Shown here: piece after piece, positions 2,365 through 55,167 of the stretch
How the letters are laid out: the number at the start of each line of letters is the position of its first letter
Position numbering within the stretch: position 1 is the stretch's first letter
DNA from: Nannocystis radixulma
Lineage (GTDB): Bacteria; Myxococcota_A; Polyangia; Nannocystales; Nannocystaceae
NCBI RefSeq assembly: GCF_028369095.1
Contig: NZ_JAQNDN010000024.1
Location: 89,350 to 153,349 of the forward strand
Direction: 5' to 3'
DNA length: 64,000 nt
The notes under the pieces: generated by a model
What the model was told of the DNA's origin: nothing
Databases searched by the model: none
What the model saw: only the letters and a program-made list of their open reading frames with translations
Position numbers and translations under genes: made by a program

Positions 2365-5300
2365 TCAGGGCTTGGGCTGCGCGGGCTCGACCGGGGCCAG
2401 GGCCTTGGGCGCGGCGGGAGTCTGGGCCTTGAGGCGCTTGCGTCGCGGCTCCCACACGGCCTTGGGCCGCAGGGGGATCCGGCCGCCGAACAGCGAGAAG
2501 TAGCGCTGCGCGCCGTCGTTGCCGCCGCCGATGAGGCCGAACAGGGCGCGCCAGTGGAGGCCCTTCTTGACGCCGATGCCGTCGCCCTTGGCGTCGCTGA
2601 TCGCCTGCTCGGTGCGCCACCACCAGCCGAGGCCGGGGCCGATGACCTGGGTCTCGCGGCCGCGGCCGCGCTGACGGGCCCAGATGGCCGGCACGACCTG
2701 CGTGACGCGGCCCTTGCGGCGGATGTCCCACCACAGGAAGGCGCCGAAGGTGCCCGAGTTCTCGCCGCGCTCGATGTGCCAGATCAACGGGAACTGGACC
2801 CAGTCGTTGTCCTGGCCGCGCCGGCGCTGGAACACCAGGGCCGGGAAGACGCTGGTGAAGCTGGTGTCCTTGGCCCAGTTGTTGTCGCGCAGGAACAGCG
2901 GCAAGAGCCAGGTCATGCGCCGCTCGGCGTAGCTGTGCGCGGTGTAGAAGAGCGGCGGCGCGACCACGGTGGTCACCTTGTGCGGTCGGCGGAAGTTCCA
3001 GACCATCAGCCCGGCCTGGAACCACCGGTAGTCCTCGCGGTGGGCGCCGACGAACAGCGGCGGCAGCACGACGGTAGTGCTGCGATCCTTGGTGCGGTAG
3101 GCCTTGCGGAAGAACAGCGGGAAGAAGACGGTGGTCTTGAACTGCCGCGTGGTCGTGTGGCCGAAGTTGAGCGCGTACCAGGTGAGGCGCTCGCCGGGCC
3201 GCACGTTGGCGCCGCCCAGCAAGGTGAGGAACCGGCGGCCGCCCGGGTCCTTGTCGAAGTAGTAGAGCATCAGCGCGCCGTGGCTGGTGCGGCCCTTGCC
3301 GTCCTTGCCGTAGAGGAAGAACGGCCACGAGCCCCACAGCGTGTAGCGGCAACGATCGTCGTCCTCCTCGCGGAAGCCGCACTTCTGGTAGCGGAACGCG
3401 AACGGGACCACGCCGGTGAAGCGGTAGTTCTTGTGCAGGCGGAAGAAGTCGAAGAAGATCGGCGGAGCCAGGCTGAAGCGCGTGAAGTTGAACTGACCCT
3501 TGACGCCGACGACGAACGGGAACGCGACCCACGAGCGGCGACCGTTGGCCCGCTGACGGTCGAACCAGAACGGCACGGCGATGGTGGTGTGCTCGTTCTT
3601 CCCCTTGTCGGCCTGGTGGAAGATGAGCGGCAGCGAGATCAGGCGCCGCTTCTCCGCCGAGTCCATCCACCAGTAGACCGGGACCACACCGGCGTTGAGC
3701 GAGGTGCGGGTGAGGCGGTGGAACGCCGGGCCGGCGATGAGCGTGTGCGTGCGCCGGACCTTGTCGCGGCTGTAGAAGAACGGCAGCAGCAGGCCGGCGT
3801 CGACGTCGATGCCCTCGGGCTGGCGCTGGCGGAAGTAGAACGGGACGACCGCGAGGTTCTTGCGCGGCTTCTCGCCGCGCGTGGCGGTCCGCCAGACCAG
3901 CGGCGACCACATGTCGAGGTCCTCGCTCGGCGCGCGGTGGCGGGCGAACAGCGGCGCGATGACGAGGTTGCTGGCGACGCCGCCCTCGACCTTGCGCCGA
4001 TCGTAGAACACCAGCGGGATCAGGCCGAAGCCGCGGCGGACCGGATCCTTGTAGCCGCGGAAGCCGTAGAGGAGCGCCGCGGCCGACCAGGTGCGCTGCT
4101 CCGGCGTGCGGTAGGCGCCGCCCAGCGGGGTGAGGGTGAGCGTCTTGCCGTCCTTCTGGCGCCGGTAGAAGAGGGGGAACAGCGCGGTGTGGCGCTCGTC
4201 GCCGGCGCGCTTCACGTCCCAGAACAGGTTGAGCACGCCGATCGTGCGGTGGTCGGGGCCCTTGCTGCGGGCGAACAGCGGCGACACCGTCAGCGCGCGC
4301 TGGGCCTCGACGTCGTGGACATGTCCGAAGAGCAAGGGCGGGACGATGCCGTAGCGGTACTTGTCGTCGCGGCCGGCGAACACCAGCGGGGCGAGGCCGC
4401 CGTGACCGCCGGACTTGACCTTCTTGGCGTAGATCGGGCCGAGCACCCACAGGTCGCTCGGCTTGGCCGGGTCGGTGTCGCGGCGGTGCCAGAACAGCGG
4501 GGTGATGGTCTGGTACGAGCGGGTGCCGTCGCGGCCGACGAACGCGAGCGGGGCGAGGCCGGCGTCCCAGCGCTCGCCGCGGCGGCGGTAGAAGCCGAGC
4601 ACGCCGGCCGACAGCGTGCGCGAGCCCTTGCCGTCGTAGGCGCTCGGATCGTGCGAGTGGCCGAACAGCGGCGTGACGACCTGGAAGCTCTTGCCGCCCG
4701 GCTCGTTGCGCACGAACGTCAGCAGCGGGGTGATGCCGAAGCCCCAGCGGCCGTCCTTGCCGGCGCGACCGCCTCCGAGCAGGGTGTAGACCCGCGTGTC
4801 CTGCGGGCTCTTGCGCGCGTACAGCAGCGGGACGAACACGCTGCTGGTGACGCCGGCCTTCACGTCGCCGAACTGCCAGAACAGCGGGAACAGCACCCGG
4901 TTGCGCTGCTCCGGGTCGCGGTAGCTGACCCATGGGAACGCCGACCAGGCGACGCTGCCGCGGTCGCGGTTCTCGGAGCGCCACACCAGCGGCGTGGCCG
5001 AGAACAGCTTGCGCGTCGGGGTCTGGTGCGAGAACGTGAGGAGCGGCGGGACGGCCCACGCGCGCAGGCTGCGGGCCTTGTCGCTGCGCTGCACGTACAG
5101 CAGCGTCCACAGGTCCTTGCGGTTGCCGTACTCGCTCGACTGCCAGTGCACGAGCGGCAGCACCGTGTGCCACTTGACCCCGCGGGCCTTGTTCTGCCCG
5201 CCGATGTAGAGCGGGACGCCGACGTTGACGGTGCTCGGGCCGCGGGTCACGCGGTAGAACAGCGGGAAGCCGACGAAGTAGCGCAGGTCGTTGAGCGGGT

Positions 5301-16424: not shown

Positions 16425-16432
<8 letters not shown>

Positions 16433-17747
16433 GGCTGGCGCCACGGACATGTCCCAGGGGACACGTCCGCGGGGCCGTCGCGTCCTGCTGATCGTCAGCG
16501 GCGGGATCGCGGCCTACAAGGCGCCGGAATTGGTGCGGGCGTTCGTCGCCGCCGGCTGCGAGGTCCAGGTGGTGATGACGCCGGCCGCGGAGGCGTTCGT
16601 CAGCGCGCTGTCGCTGGCGACGGTCTCGACCCGGCCGGTGCGCACGCGCCTGCTCGACCCGGAGGAGGAGGGCCACGTCGGCCACATCGAGCTCGCCGAC
16701 TGGCCCGACCTGGTGGTCGTCGCGCCGGCCACCGCCGACCTGCTGGCGCGCGCGACCCACGGGCTGGCGAACGACCTCGCGGCGACGGTGCTGCTGGCCA
16801 CGCGCGCGCCGGTGCTGTGGGCGCCGGCGATGAACACCAACATGTGGCGCCACCCGGCCACGCAGGACAACCTGGCGACGCTGCGCGCCCGCGGGGCCGA
16901 GTTCGTCGGGCCCGATCGCGGGCAGCTGGCGTGCGGGTGGATCGGCGAGGGCCGCATGATCGATCCGCCGCTGATCGTCGCCGCCGCGCTGGCGCGGCTC
17001 GGCGTCGGCCCGGCGAGCCGCGGGCCGTGGGCCGGCAAGCGCGTGCTGGTGTCGGCCGGGCCGACGCGGACGTACATCGATCCGGTCCGCTTCGTCACCA
17101 ACGCGTCGACCGGGGCGATGGGCTTCGCGCTGGCCGACGCGGCCCAGCGCGCCGGCGCCTCGGTGACGCTCGTGGCCGGACCGGTCGAGCTGGTCACGCC
17201 GGCGGGCGTGCGCCGCGTCGACGTCGAGACCGCGGCCGAGATGCAGGCGGCGCTGGAGAACGAGCTGTCTCAAGGGCCATGTGATTGGGTGGCCATGGTG
17301 GCGGCGGTGCAGGACCTCGAGATCGACGGCGGTGCCGCGCGCAAGCTCGAGAAGGCGGAGCTGCTGGCGACGCTGCCGACGCTCGGCTGGCGGGCCGCGC
17401 CCGACATCCTCGCCGCGCTGACGGCCCGCTTCGGCCGCGGCGCGGCGCCGGGCGCCCCGCGCTCGCGCTTCCTCGGGTTCGCGGCGCAGACGGTCGAGGA
17501 TGGCCCCGAGGACAGGTTGCAGCAGGAGCTGATCCGGCTCGGCTCGGTCAAGCTGCGGGCCAAGGGCGCCGACGCGATCTTCGTCAACCGCGTCGGCGCG
17601 CCCGGGGTCGGCTTCGCGTCCGCGACCAACGCCGGCCTGTTGCTGGCGCGCGACGGCGACGCGATCGCCGTGCGCGCCTCGGGCCCGCCGATCGCCAAGG
17701 CGGCGCTGGCCGCCTGGCTGCTCGACGCGCTGGCCGCGACGAGCTGA
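16425..17747 (+). CDS. coaBC: Bifunctional phosphopantothenoylcysteine decarboxylase/phosphopantothenate-cysteine ligase CoaBC
   Basis: RVLLIVSGGIAAYKAPELVR flavoprotein domain plus C-terminal CoaB ligase domain. The likely start is ATG at 16449, inside a GGACATGTCC repeat. Confidence 0.9.
16445..16468. repeat. GGACA-family palindromic repeat pair (GGACATGTCC-cagg-GGACACGTCC) at the ribBA/coaBC junction
   Basis: Read directly. The internal ATG (16449) is the likely coaBC start. Confidence 0.8.
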
Positions 17748-17761
17748 CGGAGGATCTCGCA

Positions 17762-19198
17762 GTGGAAGGCGATCGACGCGACGCGACCCGGCGGCTGGCG
17801 GTTCAGTTCGCCGCCCACCTGCGTCACCTCCGGGAGTTCCGGGGTTTGGCGTACGTGTCCGCCGCGTCCTCTCCGCGTCGCGCCGGCGCGCCGAGTTCCG
17901 CGCCCGAGGAGCGATCGCCGGCTCCGGACAGCACCTGGTCGTCCGGACAGGTGACCGATCACGCCGCCGCGGACGCGCGCACACCGACATGGCCCGAAGA
18001 CCAGGCCAGATCCGCCCGCGATTCCGGGCCGCGAGCGCGCACACAACCGGGCCCGGCGGCCTCGGGGCCGCCGCCGCAGGAGATGAAGCGAGGGCGCGCG
18101 CAGCCGGGCCCTGCGGACTGGGAGCCGTCGCAGGAGACGACACGCGGTCGCGCGCAGGCGGGCCCCGAGGACTGGGAGCCGTCGCCGCAGCCGGACCCCG
18201 GGGACTGGGAGCCGTGGCCGCCGCAGGAGACGACACGCGGGCGCGCGCAGCCGGGCTCCGGGGACTGGGAGTCGTCGCAGCAGGAGACGACACGCGGGCG
18301 CGCGCAGCGGGAGTCGCCGCCGCAGGAGCCGACGCGAGGGCGCGCCCAGCGGGGCCCTGCAGAGTGGGAGTCGTCGCCGCCGCAAGAGGCACCGCGCTCA
18401 CGCGCCGCGACCCCGCCGTCCGCGGAGCCGCCGCGCGCTCGCACGGTCAACCAGCAGCCGGCCGAGCCGTCGCCGCGACCCCGGACGGTCAGCCTGCCGC
18501 TGGCGGATCAGGGCACACCGCCGCGTGCGGCCGAGGGCGCGCCGCGCCCGGCCGGCGATGCCTCGCTGCGCACGCAGGCTCAGGCGTGGACGCCGGCGCA
18601 GAAGCTCGAGTACTTACGGGCTCGTAACGTCGGCGACTGCACCCGCTGCAAGCTCTCGAAGACCCGCACGAACATTGTATTCGGCGTCGGCGACCCCAAC
18701 GCGCGGGTGATGTTCATCGGCGAGGCGCCCGGCGCGGACGAAGATCGGCGCGGCGAGCCGTTCGTCGGCGCTGCCGGCCGGCGGCTGACACAGTGGATCG
18801 AGCGCCTGGGCATGAAGCGCGAGCAGGTCTACATCGCCAACGTGCTGAAGTGCCGGCCGCCCGGCAACCGCGAACCGGCCGCCGACGAGATCGAGAAGTG
18901 CTCGCCGTTCCTGCGCGCCCAGATCCGGGCGATCCGCCCCGCGGTGATCGTGGCGCTCGGCAGGTACGCGGGGATGTTGCTGATCGGCACCGATCAGGAT
19001 CTGAAGTTGGCACAGATGCGCAACCGTCGTTGGACCTACGACGACCCAGGTGCAGGCCTGCAGATCCCACTTCACGTCACGTATCATCCGTCGTACGTGA
19101 TCCGACGCGAGGGTGAACTCCCTCCGGGGCAGCGAAACCCGGCCGACGACACGGTGATGTCGGACCTCGAGCGAGCGCTGCGCGTGCTGCGAAGTTGA
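17762..19198 (+). CDS. Family-4 (UdgA-type, Fe-S) uracil-DNA glycosylase with long N-terminal disordered tandem-repeat extension
   Basis: C-terminal ~200 aa: [52 protein letters not shown]...HPSY. GTG at 17762 is preceded by GGAGG at 17749-17753, just after the coaBC stop. The nearest in-frame ATG is at 18083, so at least ~165 aa of repeat region is translated. Confidence 0.7.
18075..18410. repeat. Tandem ~57-bp coding repeats (protein units ..[18 protein letters not shown]..) in the udg 5' region
   Basis: Read directly. Both strands show long ORFs here purely because of the repeat. Confidence 0.7.
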
Positions 19199-19364: not shown

Positions 19365-19393
19365 TTGACGGTTCGCGTCGCCACTTCTACAGT
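19365..19393 (+). promoter_or_regulatory. Candidate promoter for the HU-like gene (TTGACG-17-TACAGT), embedded in a 10-bp perfect inverted repeat
   Basis: -35 at 19365-19370, -10 at 19388-19393. Arms GCGTCGCCAC (19375-19384) and GTGGCGACGC (19403-19412) bracket the -10 and abut the ATG at 19414. Confidence 0.3.
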
Positions 19394-19413: not shown

Positions 19414-20073
19414 ATGACGAAGGCTGAACTCATCGAAAAAATCGCACGCAACCGTGATCTGCCGCCGGACATCACGAAGAAGTGCGTGCAGCAGATCCTC
19501 GAGATCGCGTTCGGGGAGATGGCCGCCTACTTCGTCAAGGCGAGGGTGACGCGGGCCCAGAGCCCGCGCTTCACGTTCCCCGGCTTCGGCACCTTCACCA
19601 AGAAGAAGCGCTCGGCTCGCAAGGGCGTCAACCCGCGGACGCTCGAGCCGATGACGATCGATGCGGCCTTCACGATCGACTTCCGTCCGGGCGTCGAGCT
19701 GCGCGCCAGCCTCAACGCTCCGGCTGGCAAGTCCGCCCCCGCGGCTCGGAAGCGGCGCGCCAGCCCGGCCCAGCTCGAGCTCGAGCCGCCGAGCGCCGAT
19801 CCGACCGAGCTCGACGAGGTCGACGAGGAGGATGTCGGCGAGATGAGCGACGAGGCCGACGCGGCCGACGAGGCGCTGATCCTCCGCCGCCGCTTCACCG
19901 CCCGCGAGGACCTCGAGGAGGACGACGCCGACGACGAGTTCGACGAGGTCTCGCTCGACGTGCTGCGCCGCAGCCAGCCCGCCGACCCGCGGCTCGAGCT
20001 GCCGCCGGCGCCGATGCAGCGCGCCGACGTGCCGGGCCGCCGCGCCCACGTACGCACCGGCTCGCGCTCCTGA
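19414..20073 (+). CDS. HU/IHF-family DNA-binding protein with ~120-aa Asp/Glu-rich C-terminal tail
   Basis: MTKAELIEKIA...RFTFPGFGTFTKKKRSARKGVNPRT is the HU fold. The tail is ...DEVDEEDVGEMSDEADAADE...EEDDADDEFDE. Confidence 0.85.
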   Translation: MTKAELIEKIARNRDLPPDITKKCVQQILEIAFGEMAAYFVKARVTRAQSPRFTFPGFGTFTKKKRSARKGVNPRTLEPMTIDAAFTIDFRPGVELRASLNAPAGKSAPAARKRRASPAQLELEPPSADPTELDEVDEEDVGEMSDEADAADEALILRRRFTAREDLEEDDADDEFDEVSLDVLRRSQPADPRLELPPAPMQRADVPGRRAHVRTGSRS

Positions 20074-20247: not shown

Positions 20248-20802
20248 TCACTGCGGCGCGGCCAGCTTGGCCCCGTTCTTGGGCGGCTCGGTCGGCTTGG
20301 GGGTGCCGGTCAGGGTGGCGGGCTTGGTCGTCGGCGCAGCGCCGCCGTTGGAGATGGTGCTGGTCTTGGGCTTGGACTCGCCGGTGGTGAGGCTGAGGCC
20401 GGCCTTCTGCGTGCCGTCACGCGGGGTGGCCTGGGTCCCCGGATCGAGGCGGGCCGGCGTGGGGTCGGTGGCGCGGCCCGGCTTGGGATCGGTGGCGCGG
20501 CCCGGCTTGGGGTCGGTGGCGCGGCCCGGCGTGGGCTCTTCGGTCGGCTCCGGCGCGGGCTCGGGAGTGGTGGTGGCGGGCTCGGGCTCGGGGGCAGGCT
20601 TGGGGGCGGGCTTGGCAGCGGGAGCCGGAGCAGGTGTGCTCGACGTGTCGACCGCGGCCTGGCGCGCCGGCTTGCCCTTGCCGTTCTTCGTCCCGTTGGT
20701 GGTGCCTGGCGCCGTTCCGGAGCGGCTCGACGACGAATACGAGAAGGAGCAGGCGGGCAGCGAGAAGGCGATGGCCATGAAGACCGGAAGGAGCTTGCGC
20801 AT
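20248..20802 (-). CDS. Putative secreted/lipoprotein, Pro/Thr/Ala-rich low-complexity with GRATDPKP x3 repeats
   Basis: Signal peptide MRKLLPVFMAIAFSLPAC. The alternative plus-strand ORF lacks protein-like features. Confidence 0.55.
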   Translation of the reverse strand: MRKLLPVFMAIAFSLPACSFSYSSSSRSGTAPGTTNGTKNGKGKPARQAAVDTSSTPAPAPAAKPAPKPAPEPEPATTTPEPAPEPTEEPTPGRATDPKPGRATDPKPGRATDPTPARLDPGTQATPRDGTQKAGLSLTTGESKPKTSTISNGGAAPTTKPATLTGTPKPTEPPKNGAKLAAPQ

Positions 20803-21720: not shown

Positions 21721-22972
21721 AGTCGTCGTCGTCGCCGCTGTCGACGGGCCGCGTGAAGCGGACCCCGCCGAGGCCGACCCACCCGTCGTCGGGACCGACC
21801 GGGCGGCCGGACGCGTAGGCGACGAGGTCGGCCCCGTAGCCGACAGGGAACAGACGCGCAGCGGTGACGAGGGCCGCGGTGCCGCTCGGCGGGTCGAGGC
21901 CCGGGACGCCCTTGCAGCAGCGTTCCAGCTGCTCGGGCCGCGCGTCGGCCAGGGCGGCCAGGCAGGCCCGGTCGCGGGCCACCAGGGCGGCGGCCCGCTC
22001 CCTCGTCAGCGGCGCGCGCCCGTAGGCGGGCCCCTCGTGGCCGAGCTCGGCGGTCACCCACCAGAGCACGCGCCTGTCCTCGAGGACATGTTCCATGGTA
22101 GCGAGGAAGCTCTCGACCGGGCCGCCGTCGTCGAGCTCGATCGCCCCCGGGCCGCACAGCACCGGGAGTACCGGAGGACATGCTCCATCGTACAGGTGCT
22201 GAAGGACAGCCGCGGCGAGCTCGAGGCTCAGCGCCTCGCGGTGGCGGATCTCCTCGCGCCGGATCCACGGCAGGCGGCGGTCGAGCGCGCGGACCAGCGC
22301 CGGGTCGCTGGCCAGCTCGCCGCGCGGGGTGGCGTAGCGCTTGTCGGTGATGACGAACGGCTGCAGGCCGGGGTGGTAGTCGGTGCCGACGACGACGACG
22401 AGGTCGATGTCGCGGGCGCGCGGCAGGCCGCGCAGGACCTCGTCGCTCAGGCCGGCGGCGGCGTGGACGGCGGCGTCGGGCGGCGCGGCGCCGGTGCCCG
22501 GCAGCGGCTGGTGCGGCAGGAGCACGCCGAGGACGTCGCTGGCGTCGGCGAGCCTGGCCGAAGGGTCAGGTAGTGCGGCGGCCAGGGCGGCGCCGAGGGC
22601 CGTCGGGTCGTCGGGGTAGAGCAGGCCGGCCCAGCGCGGCCGCCTCACCGGGTTGGCCAGGAACTCGCGGTGGATGGCCTCCCAGCGGGCGCGGAAGGCG
22701 TCGTCGTCGAGGTAGCCGGCGCTCTCGAGGTCGCGCACCAGGGCCTCGAGGTCGGCGAGCGGGATGTCGATGATCCCGCGCATCGCCAGCGACTGGCGCA
22801 GCTGCGGCACGGTGCGCTGGCCGTCGAGCGCGTCGAGGATGACGGAGGCCTCCTGCGGGAAGGCGACCTGCTCGCTGAGTCCGGTCGGGTCGCGCAGGAC
22901 GAGCAACGCCTCGTCGCCGCGCTGCAGCGCGACGCGCTCGACTTTGCGGAGCCTGGGCTTGTCGGTGGCCAT
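21692..22972 (-). CDS. MEMO1/AmmeMemoRadiSam-protein-B-like protein with extra ~90-aa N-terminal domain
   Basis: MATDKPRLRKVERV...RRPRWAGLLYPDDP (cf. R..AG.WY)...LVVVVGTDYH...EEIRHREALSLE (cf. EHSIE). ATG lies 2 bp after the stop of the upstream gene. Confidence 0.7.
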   Translation of the reverse strand: MATDKPRLRKVERVALQRGDEALLVLRDPTGLSEQVAFPQEASVILDALDGQRTVPQLRQSLAMRGIIDIPLADLEALVRDLESAGYLDDDAFRARWEAIHREFLANPVRRPRWAGLLYPDDPTALGAALAAALPDPSARLADASDVLGVLLPHQPLPGTGAAPPDAAVHAAAGLSDEVLRGLPRARDIDLVVVVGTDYHPGLQPFVITDKRYATPRGELASDPALVRALDRRLPWIRREEIRHREALSLELAAAVLQHLYDGACPPVLPVLCGPGAIELDDGGPVESFLATMEHVLEDRRVLWWVTAELGHEGPAYGRAPLTRERAAALVARDRACLAALADARPEQLERCCKGVPGLDPPSGTAALVTAARLFPVGYGADLVAYASGRPVGPDDGWVGLGGVRFTRPVDSGDDDDFRPASPRAS

Positions 22973-32595: not shown

Positions 32596-35145
32596 CTAGG
32601 CGCGCGAAGCCAGCAGGCACAGCGCGCCGTGGAGGTCGAGGTCGACCTCGACCTGCATGCCGGCGCGGATCTGGCCGCGCAGGATCGCGTCGGCCAGGAG
32701 CGCCTCGACGCTGCGCGTAAGGACATGTCGCAAGGGACGTGCCCCAAGAGACATGTCCTTTCCGCACAGCGAGACGACGTGGCGGGTGGCGGCCTCGGTG
32801 AGGCGGTAGCGGATGCCGCGCTCGCGCAGCAGGCGGTCGGAGGAGGCGCGGACCAGGCGGGCGCAGATCCGGGCCAGCTGCTCGCCGCCGAGCGGGTGGA
32901 GCACCAGCGGGGCCTCGATGCGGTTCCACAGCTCGACCGGGAAGGCGGCGCGGGCGGCCTCGAGCACGCGGGCCTCGTCGAGGCGGGCGTCGCCGGTGGC
33001 GTCGAGGCAGGTGGCGCCGAGGTTCGAGGTCATGATGATCGCGGCGTGGCGGAAGTCGATGGTGCGGCCGCGGCCGTCGGTGAGGCGGCCCTCGTCGAAC
33101 ACCTGCAGCAACAGCTGGTGGACGTCGCGGTGGGCCTTCTCGATCTCGTCGAGGAGGACGACGCAGTGCGGCTGCTTGAGCAGCGGGTCGGTCAGCGCGC
33201 CGCCCTGCTCGTGGCCGACGTAGCCGGGCGGGGCGCCGACGATCCGCGCGACCGCGTGGGCCTCGGCGTACTCGCTCATGTCGAGGCGGACGAACGCGTC
33301 GGGGCGGTCGAACAGGGCGCCGCACAGGGCCTTGGCGATCTCGGTCTTGCCGACGCCGCTGGGGCCGAGCAGGAGGACGGTGGCGATCGGGCGCTGCGAG
33401 CCGAAGCCGGCGCGGTTCCTGCGGATCAGCTGGGCGATGGCGGCGAGGGCGTGCTCGTGGCCGACGACCTTGCGCGCGAGCTCGGCCTCGAGCTCGAGCA
33501 TGTCCTGGTGGCCCTGGCCCTCGAGGCGCTCGCGCGGGACACCGCTGCGCTCGCAGACGATGTCGACCCAGGTGTCGCGCTGGACGGCGCCGCGGCCCTC
33601 GCGGGCGGTGCGGGCGCAGGCGAGGTCGAGCAGGTCGAGGCTGCGGCCGGGCTGGGCCAGGCCGGCGAGGAAGCGGTCGGACAGGCGCACGAGCTCGGCC
33701 AGGCGGCTACCTGACCCGAGAGACAGGCCGTGCTGGGCCAGCACCGCCGGCGCGGCGGCGGCCACGGCGGCGCGCAGGTCGTCGCCCTCGAGCGGCTGGA
33801 GGGTGACGAGGTCGAGGGCGGCGGTCAGGCCGGGGGCCCAGGCGCACAGGCGGGCCTGACCCTCGGGCGAGGCGACGGCGACGATCGGCGGCTGTCCCGA
33901 AGACCAGGCCTTGGCGAGGGCGCCGAGCAGCGCCGGCGGACCGTCGCCGCCGAGGCGGTCGAGGTCGTCGAGGATGGCGACGCCGCCCTGTTTGGCGATC
34001 GCAGCGAGGTCGGCGCGCAGGCCGTCCTCGTCCTCGTAGCGGGTCGCGGACAGGTAGAAGACCGGTTGGTGGAGCAGGCCGGCGAGGTGCTTGGCGACCA
34101 GCGTGCGGCCGCTGCCGGCCGGACCCACGAGCAGCGGCGGGCGCGGCGAGCGGCGCAGGACGGCGTCGGCGAGGCGCGCCAGCTCGCCCTCGCGGCCGTG
34201 CAGCGGCGGCAGGGCCGAGGGGTCGATCGGGCTCAGGCGGTGGCTGCGGGCCTCGGGCTGAGGCGCGGGGGCCGGGCGCGGCTCGGGCTCGCTGGCCGGC
34301 GCGACCTGGGCGTTGGGACCTGGCTTGAGGGACAGGGCCGACGGACGGCCGGGCTCGGGGCGGGCGGGCAGGCGCGGCTGGGTGCGGGTCGGGGCGCGCG
34401 TGAGCAGGCGCGGCGAATCGGACTGGTCTTCGGGCCAGGTGCGGGCGGCGTCGAGGCGGGCGCGGGCCGGATGGTCTTCGGGCCAGGTGCGGACGTCGGT
34501 CGGTCGAGGCGAGCGCGTGGCAGGCTGGCCTTCGGGCCAGGTGCGGGCGCCGCCGCGGGCGGGGCGGGGCTGGGCCTCGCTGGCGCCTGTCCGCGGGGAC
34601 ATGTCGCCCGTGCGACCGTCGGCGAGCGAGCGGCGGACGGGGCGCTCGCCGGCGGCGACGAGGGTGGACATGCGCTGGACGACGGGGCGCCGCGGCATGG
34701 CTGTCTCGGAGGACATGGCCGATGCGACATGGCGTGAGGGACCTGTCCCGGTGAGCGCGGCGGCCTCGAGCGCGCGCAGGCGGTCGATCAGCAGCTTGCG
34801 CAGGGTGCCGCAGGCGGCGCCGGCCCGCTCGAGCAGCTGGTAGGCGTGCGAGTCGGCGGAGCGGACGAGGGCGAGCAGGAGGTCGAGGTCGGGATCGGCG
34901 GCGCGACCCCCGCGCTGGGTGATCCGCAGGCGCCAGTCGGCCGGCTCGGTCTCGACCTCGGCGTGCAGCTCGTCGACGAGGGCGCGCAGGCGGGCGACGT
35001 CGAGGCCGTGCGCGGCCAGGACGCCCTGGACCGAGTCGGCGGCGCACAGCGAGAGCAGGAGCTCGCACGAGCAGCCGGCCCGCGGCCCGGCTTGCGAGGT
35101 TCGGCGCGAGCCGCTGCGCACGCCAGGCTCCGGGGATCCGATCAT
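32596..35145 (-). CDS. Atypical Clp/Hsp100-family AAA+ ATPase: single Clp-N repeat, ~250-aa disordered insert with RTWPED repeats, degenerate AAA-1, canonical AAA-2
   Basis: AAA-1 has Walker A GPAGSGRT and Walker B ILDDLD. AAA-2 has GPSGVGKTEIAKAL and VVLLDEIEKAH, and ...GARPLRHVL. Confidence 0.75.
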   Translation of the reverse strand: MIGSPEPGVRSGSRRTSQAGPRAGCSCELLLSLCAADSVQGVLAAHGLDVARLRALVDELHAEVETEPADWRLRITQRGGRAADPDLDLLLALVRSADSHAYQLLERAGAACGTLRKLLIDRLRALEAAALTGTGPSRHVASAMSSETAMPRRPVVQRMSTLVAAGERPVRRSLADGRTGDMSPRTGASEAQPRPARGGARTWPEGQPATRSPRPTDVRTWPEDHPARARLDAARTWPEDQSDSPRLLTRAPTRTQPRLPARPEPGRPSALSLKPGPNAQVAPASEPEPRPAPAPQPEARSHRLSPIDPSALPPLHGREGELARLADAVLRRSPRPPLLVGPAGSGRTLVAKHLAGLLHQPVFYLSATRYEDEDGLRADLAAIAKQGGVAILDDLDRLGGDGPPALLGALAKAWSSGQPPIVAVASPEGQARLCAWAPGLTAALDLVTLQPLEGDDLRAAVAAAAPAVLAQHGLSLGSGSRLAELVRLSDRFLAGLAQPGRSLDLLDLACARTAREGRGAVQRDTWVDIVCERSGVPRERLEGQGHQDMLELEAELARKVVGHEHALAAIAQLIRRNRAGFGSQRPIATVLLLGPSGVGKTEIAKALCGALFDRPDAFVRLDMSEYAEAHAVARIVGAPPGYVGHEQGGALTDPLLKQPHCVVLLDEIEKAHRDVHQLLLQVFDEGRLTDGRGRTIDFRHAAIIMTSNLGATCLDATGDARLDEARVLEAARAAFPVELWNRIEAPLVLHPLGGEQLARICARLVRASSDRLLRERGIRYRLTEAATRHVVSLCGKDMSLGARPLRHVLTRSVEALLADAILRGQIRAGMQVEVDLDLHGALCLLASRA

Positions 35146-54405: not shown

Positions 54406-55167
54406 ATGACGGCTGCCCCGATCCCCGGCGAGCTCACCCTCGTCGACGACCGCGCCCGCCGAATCCTCGACGCGGCAGTCCGACTCGCCGAGTCCGGCGG
54501 GTTCTCGGCCGTGCGCCTGCGCGATGTGGCCCAGGCGTCCGGCGTGGCCCTGGGCACGGTCTACAAGCGCTTCCGCAGCAAGGAAGACCTGCTGGTCGGA
54601 GTGCTGTCGCTCGAGCTGGTGGCGCTGCGCGAGCGCTTCGGCGATGCACCACTCCCCGGCGCGACCCGCCTCGACCGCCTGATCGAGTGCTTCGCAGCGC
54701 TGACCGAGACGCTGTGCGCACGACCGCATCTGGGACGCGCGGTGATCCGCTCGGCGGCGACGGGAGAGAACGCGCTGGCCGAACGACTGCACCGCTTCCA
54801 CAGCGCGCTGATGGAGCTGATCGTGGGGGCGATCCGCGGCCGCGACGAGGGACCGGTGACGGCGACGGAGCTCGAGATGCTGGCTGTCCTGCAGGATGTA
54901 TGGTTCTCTCGCCTGGTCGGCTGGACGGCGGAACTGCACGGGCCGGAGACGGTGGTGGAGCAGGTGGCTCGGGCGGCTCGGTTGCTTTACGGGGCGATCG
55001 AGGGGGCAGGCTCGTCCGGGGAGATTCGCTCGGGGGGATCTGAGTCCGAGGAGATTCGCTCGTCCGGAGGGGCTGAGTCCGGAGAGCTTCGCTCGTCCGG
55101 AGGCGCGGGGGCTGAGTCCGGAGAGCTTCGCTCGTCCGGAGGCGCGGGGCATGGAAGAACTGGGTGA
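54406..55167 (+). CDS. TetR-family regulator with ~60-aa C-terminal tandem-repeat tail (SGEIRSGGSES / SGELRSSGGAG x4)
   Basis: ATG at 54406 preceded by GGGGAG. HTH ..FSAVRLRDVAQASGVALGTVYKRFRSKEDLL. The stop TGA lies inside the MITE-like element. Confidence 0.8.
   Translation: MTAAPIPGELTLVDDRARRILDAAVRLAESGGFSAVRLRDVAQASGVALGTVYKRFRSKEDLLVGVLSLELVALRERFGDAPLPGATRLDRLIECFAALTETLCARPHLGRAVIRSAATGENALAERLHRFHSALMELIVGAIRGRDEGPVTATELEMLAVLQDVWFSRLVGWTAELHGPETVVEQVARAARLLYGAIEGAGSSGEIRSGGSESEEIRSSGGAESGELRSSGGAGAESGELRSSGGAGHGRTG
55010..55150. repeat. Tandem ~33-bp minisatellite (gctgagtccggagagcttcgctcgtccggaggcgcggg, 2 perfect plus 2 degenerate copies) forming the TetR C-terminal tail
   Basis: Read directly. 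Confidence 0.8.

Follow-up and report, generated by a model that had tools for sequence, protein, structure and literature searches.

A family-4 uracil-DNA glycosylase of Nannocystis radixulma with a conserved N-terminal helix on a hypervariable, repeat-containing linker

We analysed a stretch of 64,000 nt of the Nannocystis radixulma genome (assembly GCF_028369095.1, contig NZ_JAQNDN010000024.1, positions 89,350 to 153,349; hereafter the window, in which all coordinates are counted) that has a G+C content of 72% and contains, at 17762-19198 on the forward strand, an open reading frame (ORF) for a uracil-DNA glycosylase (UDG) of 478 amino acids. The gene lies directly behind coaBC (16425-17747, same strand), which encodes phosphopantothenoylcysteine decarboxylase/synthetase and matches the Pfam families Flavoprotein (PF02441) and DFP (PF04127). 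The open stretch of the UDG reading frame begins at 17285, within the 3' part of coaBC, which uses another frame; a Shine-Dalgarno sequence, GGAGG (17749-17753), is followed after an 8-nt spacer by a GTG codon (17762-17764), which stands 14 nt after the coaBC stop codon (17745-17747). Read from this GTG, the protein has three parts, all on the forward strand: a conserved N-terminal module (aa 1-40, 17762-17881) that includes an amphipathic helix, a linker predicted to be disordered (aa 36-265, 17867-18556) that holds an in-frame tandem array, and a family-4 UDG domain (aa 266-478, 18557-19195). Judged from the alignment of homologues, this three-part architecture is the family norm in the Nannocystaceae and not a one-off, and in the literature searched we found no description of a helix with a hypervariable linker for family-4 UDGs.

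The C-terminal part, of about 213 residues, is a complete family-4 iron-sulphur (Fe-S) UDG, and the first ~265 residues are additional to it. The domain matches Pfam PF03167 (aa 307-452, E = 8.5e-37, 126.8 bits against a cut-off of 24.3) and the NCBIfam model TIGR00758 (UDG_fam4; aa 293-451, 190.8 bits against a cut-off of 125.3). The score with the UdgX model TIGR03914 (130.8 bits) stays below the cut-off of 189.95, and UdgX structures match the protein less well than true family-4 enzymes do in both sequence and structure searches. The nearest solved relatives, 4zbx, 1vk2 and 1ui0, are family-4 enzymes of 190-205 residues (E-values 1e-38 to 1e-41). In an AlphaFold2 (AF2) model of the full-length protein, built with 121 sequences, the domain adopts the alpha/beta/alpha UDG fold with predicted local distance difference test (pLDDT) values mostly above 90, and a Foldseek search with this C-terminal part gave target-normalised TM-scores of 0.86-0.92 against 4zbx, 1l9g, 1ui0 and 1vk2, with superpositions over ~200 columns at 37-38% identity. 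The four Fe-S ligands C293, C296, C364 and C380 (codons at 18638-40, 18647-49, 18851-53 and 18899-901) are invariant across 121 homologues and align to the cysteines of 4zbx (CkkC, kCrpp, aCsp), as the active-site motifs GEAPG (320-324) and HPS (442-444) align to their counterparts there; G320, E321, P323, G324, H442 and P443 likewise show no variation, and A322 is kept in at least 90%. All sequence and fold criteria that we tested place the protein among the family-4 UDGs and not with UdgX, and removal of uracil from DNA is the predicted activity of its C-terminal domain. The catalytic domain is shared with TTUDGA from Thermus thermophilus (1ui0), TM0511 from Thermotoga maritima (1vk2/1l9g) and the Sulfurisphaera tokodaii enzyme (4zbx), but these characterised proteins of 190-205 residues have essentially no N-terminal extension, and the window protein exceeds them by 265 residues.

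The best conserved part of this extension lies at its far end. A 26-residue amphipathic helix (aa 2-27) followed by the segment xAYVSAAxSPRR is present in 116 of the 121 homologues, with L12, A13, A17, L20 and Y31 conserved in at least 90%; the comparison of orthologues thus bears out the extension itself and places its conservation in the helix, not in the repeats. AF2 predicts the helix with a pLDDT of 85-92 in the full protein and of 92-97 in an isolated 42-residue fragment. Over codons 2-40, four other Nannocystis genomes differ from the window by 11-13 synonymous and only 1-3.5 non-synonymous changes, and the ratio of non-synonymous to synonymous substitution rates (dN/dS) is 0.03-0.08 for the helix compared with 0.12-0.16 for the UDG domain, so that on the codon evidence the helix is under stronger purifying selection than the enzyme to which it is attached. 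A 39-position profile of the helix, searched against 1.84 billion representative proteins, returned only 10 matches at E<=1e-3, all of them UDGs or UDG fragments of the same clade; hence, the helix is a clade-specific module that exists only in connection with this enzyme. Outgroup loci (Deferrimicrobium and other 'Deltaproteobacteria' metagenome-assembled genomes, MAGs) have room for at most ~55 residues before the CxxC motif, as taken from tblastn coordinates, since a comparison of ORF lengths is confounded by stop-free shadow frames over coaBC. We also considered the sequence TRRLAV as a twin-arginine translocation signal and rejected this reading, as homologues do not share the twin arginine and the next segment is charged, not hydrophobic.

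Canonical in-frame start codons occur at 17762 (GTG), 17846 (TTG), 17855 (GTG), 17951 (GTG) and 18083 (ATG), and none lies between 18083 and 18707. The ATG at 18083, the nearest usable start, is part of the first repeat unit (QEMKRGRAQ) and precedes the TIGR00758 match by 185 codons; the GTG at 17762 adds 265 residues before the first structured residue and 292 before the CxxC motif. On several sequence grounds we regard GTG 17762 as the true start. N. punicea, N. bainbridge, N. exedens and strain RBIL2 share the sequence GGAGGATCTC(GCA)GTG right behind the coaBC stop, and the metagenomic homologues P0002, P0004 and P0006 begin at the equivalent residue. The G+C content at third codon positions (GC3) of the UDG frame amounts to 0.80-0.95 over the whole gene as read from 17762, linker included, which is consistent with translation of the whole stretch. 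Moreover, 116 of 121 homologues have helix and UDG domain in a single ORF, although the linkers between them range over 31-244 residues; an untranslated spacer would not preserve this phase. The only phase-breaking case is found in the N. pusilla Na p29 assembly (L004), in which a single frameshift within the linker (~4340-4400) splits the helix frame from the repeat/UDG frame, and this may reflect a fault of the assembly or else a genuine event that affects the phase or makes a pseudogene.

We give very little credence to the alternative that the UDG is translated from the internal ATG 18083 or from a CTG at 18494, 18500 or 18566, with the upstream region untranslated or yielding a separate small product. 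In-frame CTG codons are indeed present just upstream of the UDG domain, the Prokaryotic Genome Annotation Pipeline (PGAP) chose downstream starts in three relatives, and the linker contains DNA elements that are known from intergenic DNA as well. Internal initiation is, however, hard to reconcile with a helix that stays in phase with the domain across very different linker lengths, with tandem-array periods that are nearly all multiples of 3 (see below), with the low dN/dS of the helix, with the conserved Shine-Dalgarno sequence and GTG, or with coding-like GC3 throughout and a single frameshifted assembly. These results agree with the original prediction, which had been made from the window's letters and had placed an Fe-S family-4 UDG at the C-terminus of a longer ORF, seen its only usable starts at least 165 codons upstream within repeats, and suggested that a GGAGG-GTG start right after coaBC would add about 270 residues. 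There is no need to invoke the case named there as a refutation, a CTG start mapped just ahead of the domain, as helix and domain stay in one frame across linker lengths.

The start calls of three RefSeq proteins, those of Nannocystis sp. SCPEA4 (P0001, 450 aa, at 96% identity the closest match to the 478-residue product), of a genome named N. poenicansa (P0003, 289 aa) and of N. bainbridge (P0005, 357 aa), lie too far downstream and cut off the conserved helix; P0003 is encoded on the same contig as the N. punicea FL3 locus (L001). Counted from the conserved GGAGG-GTG start, the ORFs of N. punicea (L001), N. bainbridge and N. exedens comprise 537, 497 and 533 codons' worth of residues, respectively, that of RBIL2 564 aa and that of N. 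pusilla about 613 aa.

The linker presents a very different picture. Its pLDDT is mostly below 50 (aa ~40-260), and residues 36-265 are rich in Pro (20%), Ala (14%), Arg (12%), Ser (10%) and Glu (9%), include 8 Trp and are nearly neutral overall (29 Lys+Arg and 31 Asp+Glu, net charge about -2). In the 116 database homologues with the helix its length is 31-244 residues, and the linkers of other Nannocystis genomes are longer. In the window, Tandem Repeats Finder (TRF) reports an array at 18070-18435 with periods of 54, 57, 33, 42, 93 and 99, all multiples of 3, and 76-87% matches; the in-frame, imperfect array as we delimit it (18068-18435) includes the ATG at 18083 and encodes 5-6 units of about 18-19 residues with QETTRGRAQ and DWEPS blocks. 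The arrays of other species are built differently: 81 nt x 6.1 copies in N. punicea, 45 nt x 4.4 in N. bainbridge, 42 nt x 7 in N. exedens, 42 nt x 8.6 in RBIL2, and both 42 nt x 8.3 and 51 nt x 3.7 in N. pusilla, with further unrelated arrays in Enhygromyxa salina and two Nannocystaceae MAGs (24/27, 21/12/36 and 15/21 nt). Across eight lineages the periods called by TRF are divisible by 3; a weak, overlapping call of period 22 in N. pusilla is the only exception. No array is present in the homologue P0002 (343 aa), whose UDG domain shares 92% identity with that of the window protein. Between the window and SCPEA4, 14 of 16 amino-acid differences fall in the linker (6% of the linker compared with 0.9% of the domain), which corresponds to an about 6 times faster evolution of the linker, and there is neither an indel nor a difference in array copy number.

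Hence, the simplest reading of the linker is a permissive disordered spacer that is remodelled by replication slippage, with selection on the reading frame and perhaps on a minimum length; by the species comparison, the repeat sequence itself is not conserved, as unit, period and copy number differ between species. It is, in our view, unlikely that the tandem repeats are functional as multivalent Trp-acidic and Arg-rich motifs (DWEPS and RGRAQ) that bind DNA, the nucleoid or a partner or drive condensates. Trp does recur in the arrays of most species (DWEPS, NEWS, DEWS), the sequence PPP[NI][DE]W is kept at the distal array end in five of them, and between units the QETTRGRAQ block differs mostly synonymously (17 synonymous and 11 non-synonymous codon differences, with 20 of 32 nucleotide differences at third codon positions). 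However, Trp is often swapped for Gly, Arg or Gln within units and is absent from the N. bainbridge units, the DWEPS block shows 30 non-synonymous and only 5 synonymous codon differences between units, and neither the species-specific unit, period and copy number (81, 45, 42 and 54/57 nt), nor the arrayless P0002, nor the rapid evolution of the linker would be expected of a selected repeat peptide. A database search with the array alone (aa 101-223) found nothing at E<=1, and as it also missed the 96%-identical SCPEA4 protein, it was blind to this low-complexity query. The tandem ~57-bp repeats and the disorder of the extension had both been foreseen, the latter holding here as a structure prediction. 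The variation of copy number proposed as a check was found between species, together with that of unit and period, but not between the window and SCPEA4. That the extension is unusual holds in comparison with the characterised family-4 UDGs of 190-205 residues and not within the Nannocystaceae, as 116 of 121 homologues have it; the helix, its conserved part, had gone unnoticed in the original prediction.

A part of the linker sequence has another origin. The window contains a 20-bp imperfect palindrome, ACCTG(G/T)CC-N4-GG(A/C)CAGGT, of which 16 copies with up to 3 mismatches were counted (5593, 5922, 12341, 17933, 17987, 22552, 34318, 34421, 34523, 39520, 49477, 52194, 52583, 55929, 57725 and 57788) against 0.43 expected from shuffles; relaxed copies occur at 33892, 37861, 39491, 44376, 44398, 45653, 49946 and 62255. 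The enrichment is specific for the spacer, with 16 copies at N4 and 0-6 at the other spacings tested. Two of the copies lie in frame in the UDG linker: the first (17933-17952, ACCTGGTCGTCCGGACAGGT), kept at this position in the five other Nannocystis loci (L001-L005), is read as TWSSGQV, and the second (17987-18006, ACATGGCCCGAAGACCAGGC), conserved there as ACMTGGCCCGAAGGMCAGGC, is read as TWPEDQA. Motifs related to TWPxGQV occur 1-4 times per linker in 40 of the 116 homologues, all among the ~50 closest matches. The first copy uses the Gly codon GGA, which makes up 3.7% of the Gly codons of the window, and so do 10 of the 12 in-frame first-copy instances for which DNA is available; several also use CCT (4% of Pro codons), and GAA is found as well.

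Among the related loci, those of the Nannocystis genomes and MAGs L001-L010 have 2-4 copies of the palindrome each (4.5-10 kb per locus), and loci of equal G+C from Enhygromyxa, other Nannocystaceae and outgroups have 0-2, mostly 0. When metagenomes were scanned for the exact core, 23 high-G+C contigs with two or more copies came up, 61 copies in total, of which 38 lie in DNA without clear coding phase (a class that includes low-complexity coding linkers) and 23 lie clearly in coding phases, over which they are evenly spread (7, 9 and 7), some being flanked by stop codons. A copy at 22552-22571 has syntenic counterparts in five other Nannocystis genomes (L001 8938, L002 8769, L003 8935, L004 9182, L005 9032), where a TGA stop and an ATG start directly flank it (cggtgaACCTGGTCGAAGGGTCAGGTatg); the flanks of the window copy have diverged. 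Further in-frame copies were observed in a gene unrelated to UDG, the ORF of a ClpA/B-like AAA+ ATPase (32596-35145, reverse strand; domains AAA_2 and ClpB_D2-small), whose linker (about 34420-34545) has three of them (TWPEGQ, TWPEDH, TWPEDQ) inside a period-54 tandem array before the first AAA domain, with a fourth, in reverse orientation, at 34318.

TWPxGQV in the linker is thus an in-frame copy of a DNA element and not a peptide motif, which shows that the nucleotide level dictates some of the linker sequence. The opposite view, that TWPxGQV is a peptide interaction motif selected at the protein level and common to the UDG and ClpA/B-like ATPase linkers, may point to the reading of all UDG-linker copies and of the three AAA+ copies in the same frame. 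We nevertheless hold it to be highly unlikely, because the 20-bp sequence is also present outside coding regions and, within them, in each of the three phases, its two halves keep a fixed spacing at the DNA level, and the in-frame copies use rare codons. A profile built from three TWPxGQV motifs in series gave nothing significant in a protein database search (653 candidates collected). The palindrome was also considered as a stable RNA or DNA hairpin, which we rejected as many copies, including both in the UDG gene, fold weakly (minimum free energy -2 to -7 kcal/mol); its sequence is better conserved than its structure, and it may instead be a binding site for a protein on double-stranded DNA. 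No Rfam family matched in a scan of the whole window, and the literature searched on Nannocystis and myxobacterial palindromic repeats describes no such element. From its distribution, the palindrome appears to be a previously undescribed dispersed element that is largely confined to Nannocystis and is written in frame into disordered linkers. There is a weak possibility that the DWEPSQE repeat unit derives from it, as the two have the CTGG-N9-CAGG spacing in common and agree at 12 of 21 nt by eye; the arrays of other species do not share this likeness.

Like REP/REPIN sequences (REP, repetitive extragenic palindrome), the element is a short, high-copy, lineage-specific palindrome. REPs are mostly extragenic; of the 61 copies of the Nannocystis palindrome, 38 lie in DNA without clear coding phase, low-complexity coding linkers included, and 23 clearly inside coding phases. 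The Rickettsia palindromic elements (RPEs) are dispersed palindromes that are found between genes and also in frame within genes, to which they add peptide segments (PMC10969869). Both are lineage-specific, dispersed, and at once intergenic and in frame in protein-coding genes; RPEs, however, measure ~100-150 bp and bring their own conserved peptide, while the Nannocystis element has 20 bp, of which only the core is conserved, with unrelated flanks.

Taken together, our preferred reading, to which we assign a probability of roughly 0.55, is that one 478-residue polypeptide is made from GTG 17762 and consists of a conserved helix, a disordered leash of ~230 residues and a family-4 UDG, with the helix serving as a tethered docking peptide. 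The helix would hold the enzyme near a partner, which might be the replisome, the nucleoid or a repair protein, and the flexible linker would set the reach of the catalytic domain, whose [4Fe-4S]-containing fold is predicted to remove uracil from DNA. The spacer, kept in presence and not in sequence, would grow and shrink by in-frame replication slippage of minisatellites and would tolerate in-frame copies of the genome-wide 20-bp palindrome. The docking role of the helix is our best guess, drawn by analogy with other tethered proteins.

The main competitor, which we consider possible and clearly less probable, is that the helix folds back on its own UDG domain, for instance on the helices just before it (aa 266-289), and has a structural or autoregulatory role, the linker being a tolerated loop. 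These pre-domain helices carry the invariant residues W276, K281, L282, Y284 and L285 and are only partly covered by the alignment to the solved family-4 enzymes of 190-205 residues; the N-terminal helix has an a/d/e-type heptad pattern (L12, F16, H19/L20, L23, F26), which is typical of helix-bundle packing, and is found in no other protein context. However, linkers of up to 244 residues or more would be an odd connection for two packed elements, and the pLDDT of the helix is no higher with the domain (85-92) than alone (92-97). Mutual information between helix and domain (116 sequences) is dominated by phylogeny and uninformative.

Several points weigh against the tethered docking peptide. 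In the AF2 control, the isolated helix is predicted more confidently than in its context, so the model is no guide to whether it docks on the enzyme or binds elsewhere. The start at 17762 is a prediction from sequence, and in the QETTRGRAQ block the repeats are still fairly regular as peptides, so that the repeat peptide may have a role. Moreover, a regular-expression scan of aa 1-265 found none of the canonical beta-clamp motifs QL[SD]LF and QLxLxL, and the PCNA-interacting (PIP-box) pattern Qxx[LIMV]xx[FYW][FYWL] has no match anywhere in the protein. The sliding-clamp interaction that the original prediction had suggested for the extension is therefore not borne out by the motif scan. The sole QLxLxL-like match lies at aa 434, inside the folded UDG domain. 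The linker does contain TVSLPL (aa 242-247), which has the SLPL of the Hda-type motif QLSLPL but not its Gln; this SLPL (aa 244-247, 18491-18502) is a clade-restricted short linear motif, and 35 of the 116 homologues, nearly all among the ~60 closest matches, have [SR]LP[ILV] within the final 60 residues of the linker. It may be regarded as a weak candidate for clamp binding, loosely similar to the second half of the Hda-type motif.

The proposed docking logic has counterparts elsewhere. In human UNG2, a disordered N-terminal tail carries the sites for PCNA and RPA (PMC9266487). UNG2, a family-1 enzyme, resembles the window protein in having such a tail ahead of a compact glycosylase core, and the same docking logic likely applies, but it belongs to another UDG family and its tail is unrelated in sequence, has eukaryotic partners and is regulated by phosphorylation. 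The tail of the window protein is about three times as long, contains tandem repeats and lacks a PIP-box or clamp motif. Within family 4, the UDG of Pyrobaculum aerophilum reportedly has an N-terminal PCNA-binding motif; this enzyme, too, is reported to bind the sliding clamp by its N-terminus, but through a short PIP-like peptide that sits directly on the domain and meets an archaeal PCNA, with neither a long linker nor an amphipathic helix. A terminal peptide on a variable linker is further known from SSB, with its C-terminal tip and disordered linker, and from FtsZ, with its C-terminal linker and conserved peptide. These proteins share with the window UDG a conserved short terminal peptide, a species-variable linker and a globular domain, but their tails are C-terminal and have known partners, while the UDG peptide is N-terminal.

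The neighbourhood of the gene is conserved as well. In 74 of 80 related loci, distant outgroups included, coaBC is the gene next upstream of the UDG, and the adjacency was seen far beyond the Nannocystaceae, in Deferrimicrobium, other 'Deltaproteobacteria' MAGs and even one MAG labelled Actinomycetota. A promoter scan of the region found no promoter-like site between coaBC and the UDG gene; the two are probably co-transcribed, with coaBC as the likely operon partner. The adjacency recalls the dfp(coaBC)-dut pair of E. coli, which similarly joins CoA synthesis with uracil avoidance, and the literature searched held nothing relevant on a coaBC-UDG linkage. Downstream of the UDG, at 19414-20073 (forward strand), lies a gene for an HU/IHF-like DNA-binding protein that matches PF00216 over aa 1-101 and ends in an acidic, low-complexity C-terminal tail of 118 residues. 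It is found downstream of the UDG in 57 of the 80 loci, and the sole sigma-70-like promoter match of the region (19365-19393) lies upstream of it.

Tandem arrays within genes are common in this genome and not restricted to the UDG gene; the 64-kb window has seven separate arrays at a TRF score of at least 100. A small Pro/Thr/Ala-rich ORF on the reverse strand (20248-20802) contains, as a further in-frame minisatellite, 3-4 copies of a 24-nt repeat that encodes PGRATDPK (array 20449-20564), and at 55020-55149, where no gene was called with confidence, there are about 3-4 tandem copies of the 39-nt unit GGGGCTGAGTCCGGAGAGCTTCGCTCGTCCGGAGGCGCG, two of them 100% identical. At 634-1025, tandem repeats of 96/201 nt within an ORF of 585 aa (335-2089) encode Cys-rich units of the form CGNG...EECDDGN...GDGC, which we take to be the myxobacterial cysteine-rich repeat type.

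A bolder version of the preferred reading, which we regard as rather doubtful, takes the helix as a new bacterial recruitment peptide that tethers the UDG to the replisome or nucleoid, and the leash as a landing and expansion site for minisatellites and the palindrome. If true, this would be a bacterial counterpart of UNG2 recruitment, and disordered linkers would be sinks in which genome-wide DNA signals or selfish repeats get written into proteins. The palindrome, a by-product of this work that is translated in frame in disordered linkers, may even be more unusual than the UDG finding itself. A recent review treats the non-catalytic tails of DNA glycosylases mainly as a eukaryotic feature (PMC9266487), and we found nothing relevant on extensions of family-4 UDGs in the literature searched. 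Descriptions of bacterial DNA glycosylases usually present a catalytic core without tails; the UDG of the Nannocystaceae carries an N-terminal helix under strong purifying selection, on a linker that repeat slippage rebuilds in each species. Our analysis corrects public start-codon calls that remove this conserved helix in at least three genomes, and it gives a concrete way to test how bacteria might localise a base-excision enzyme.

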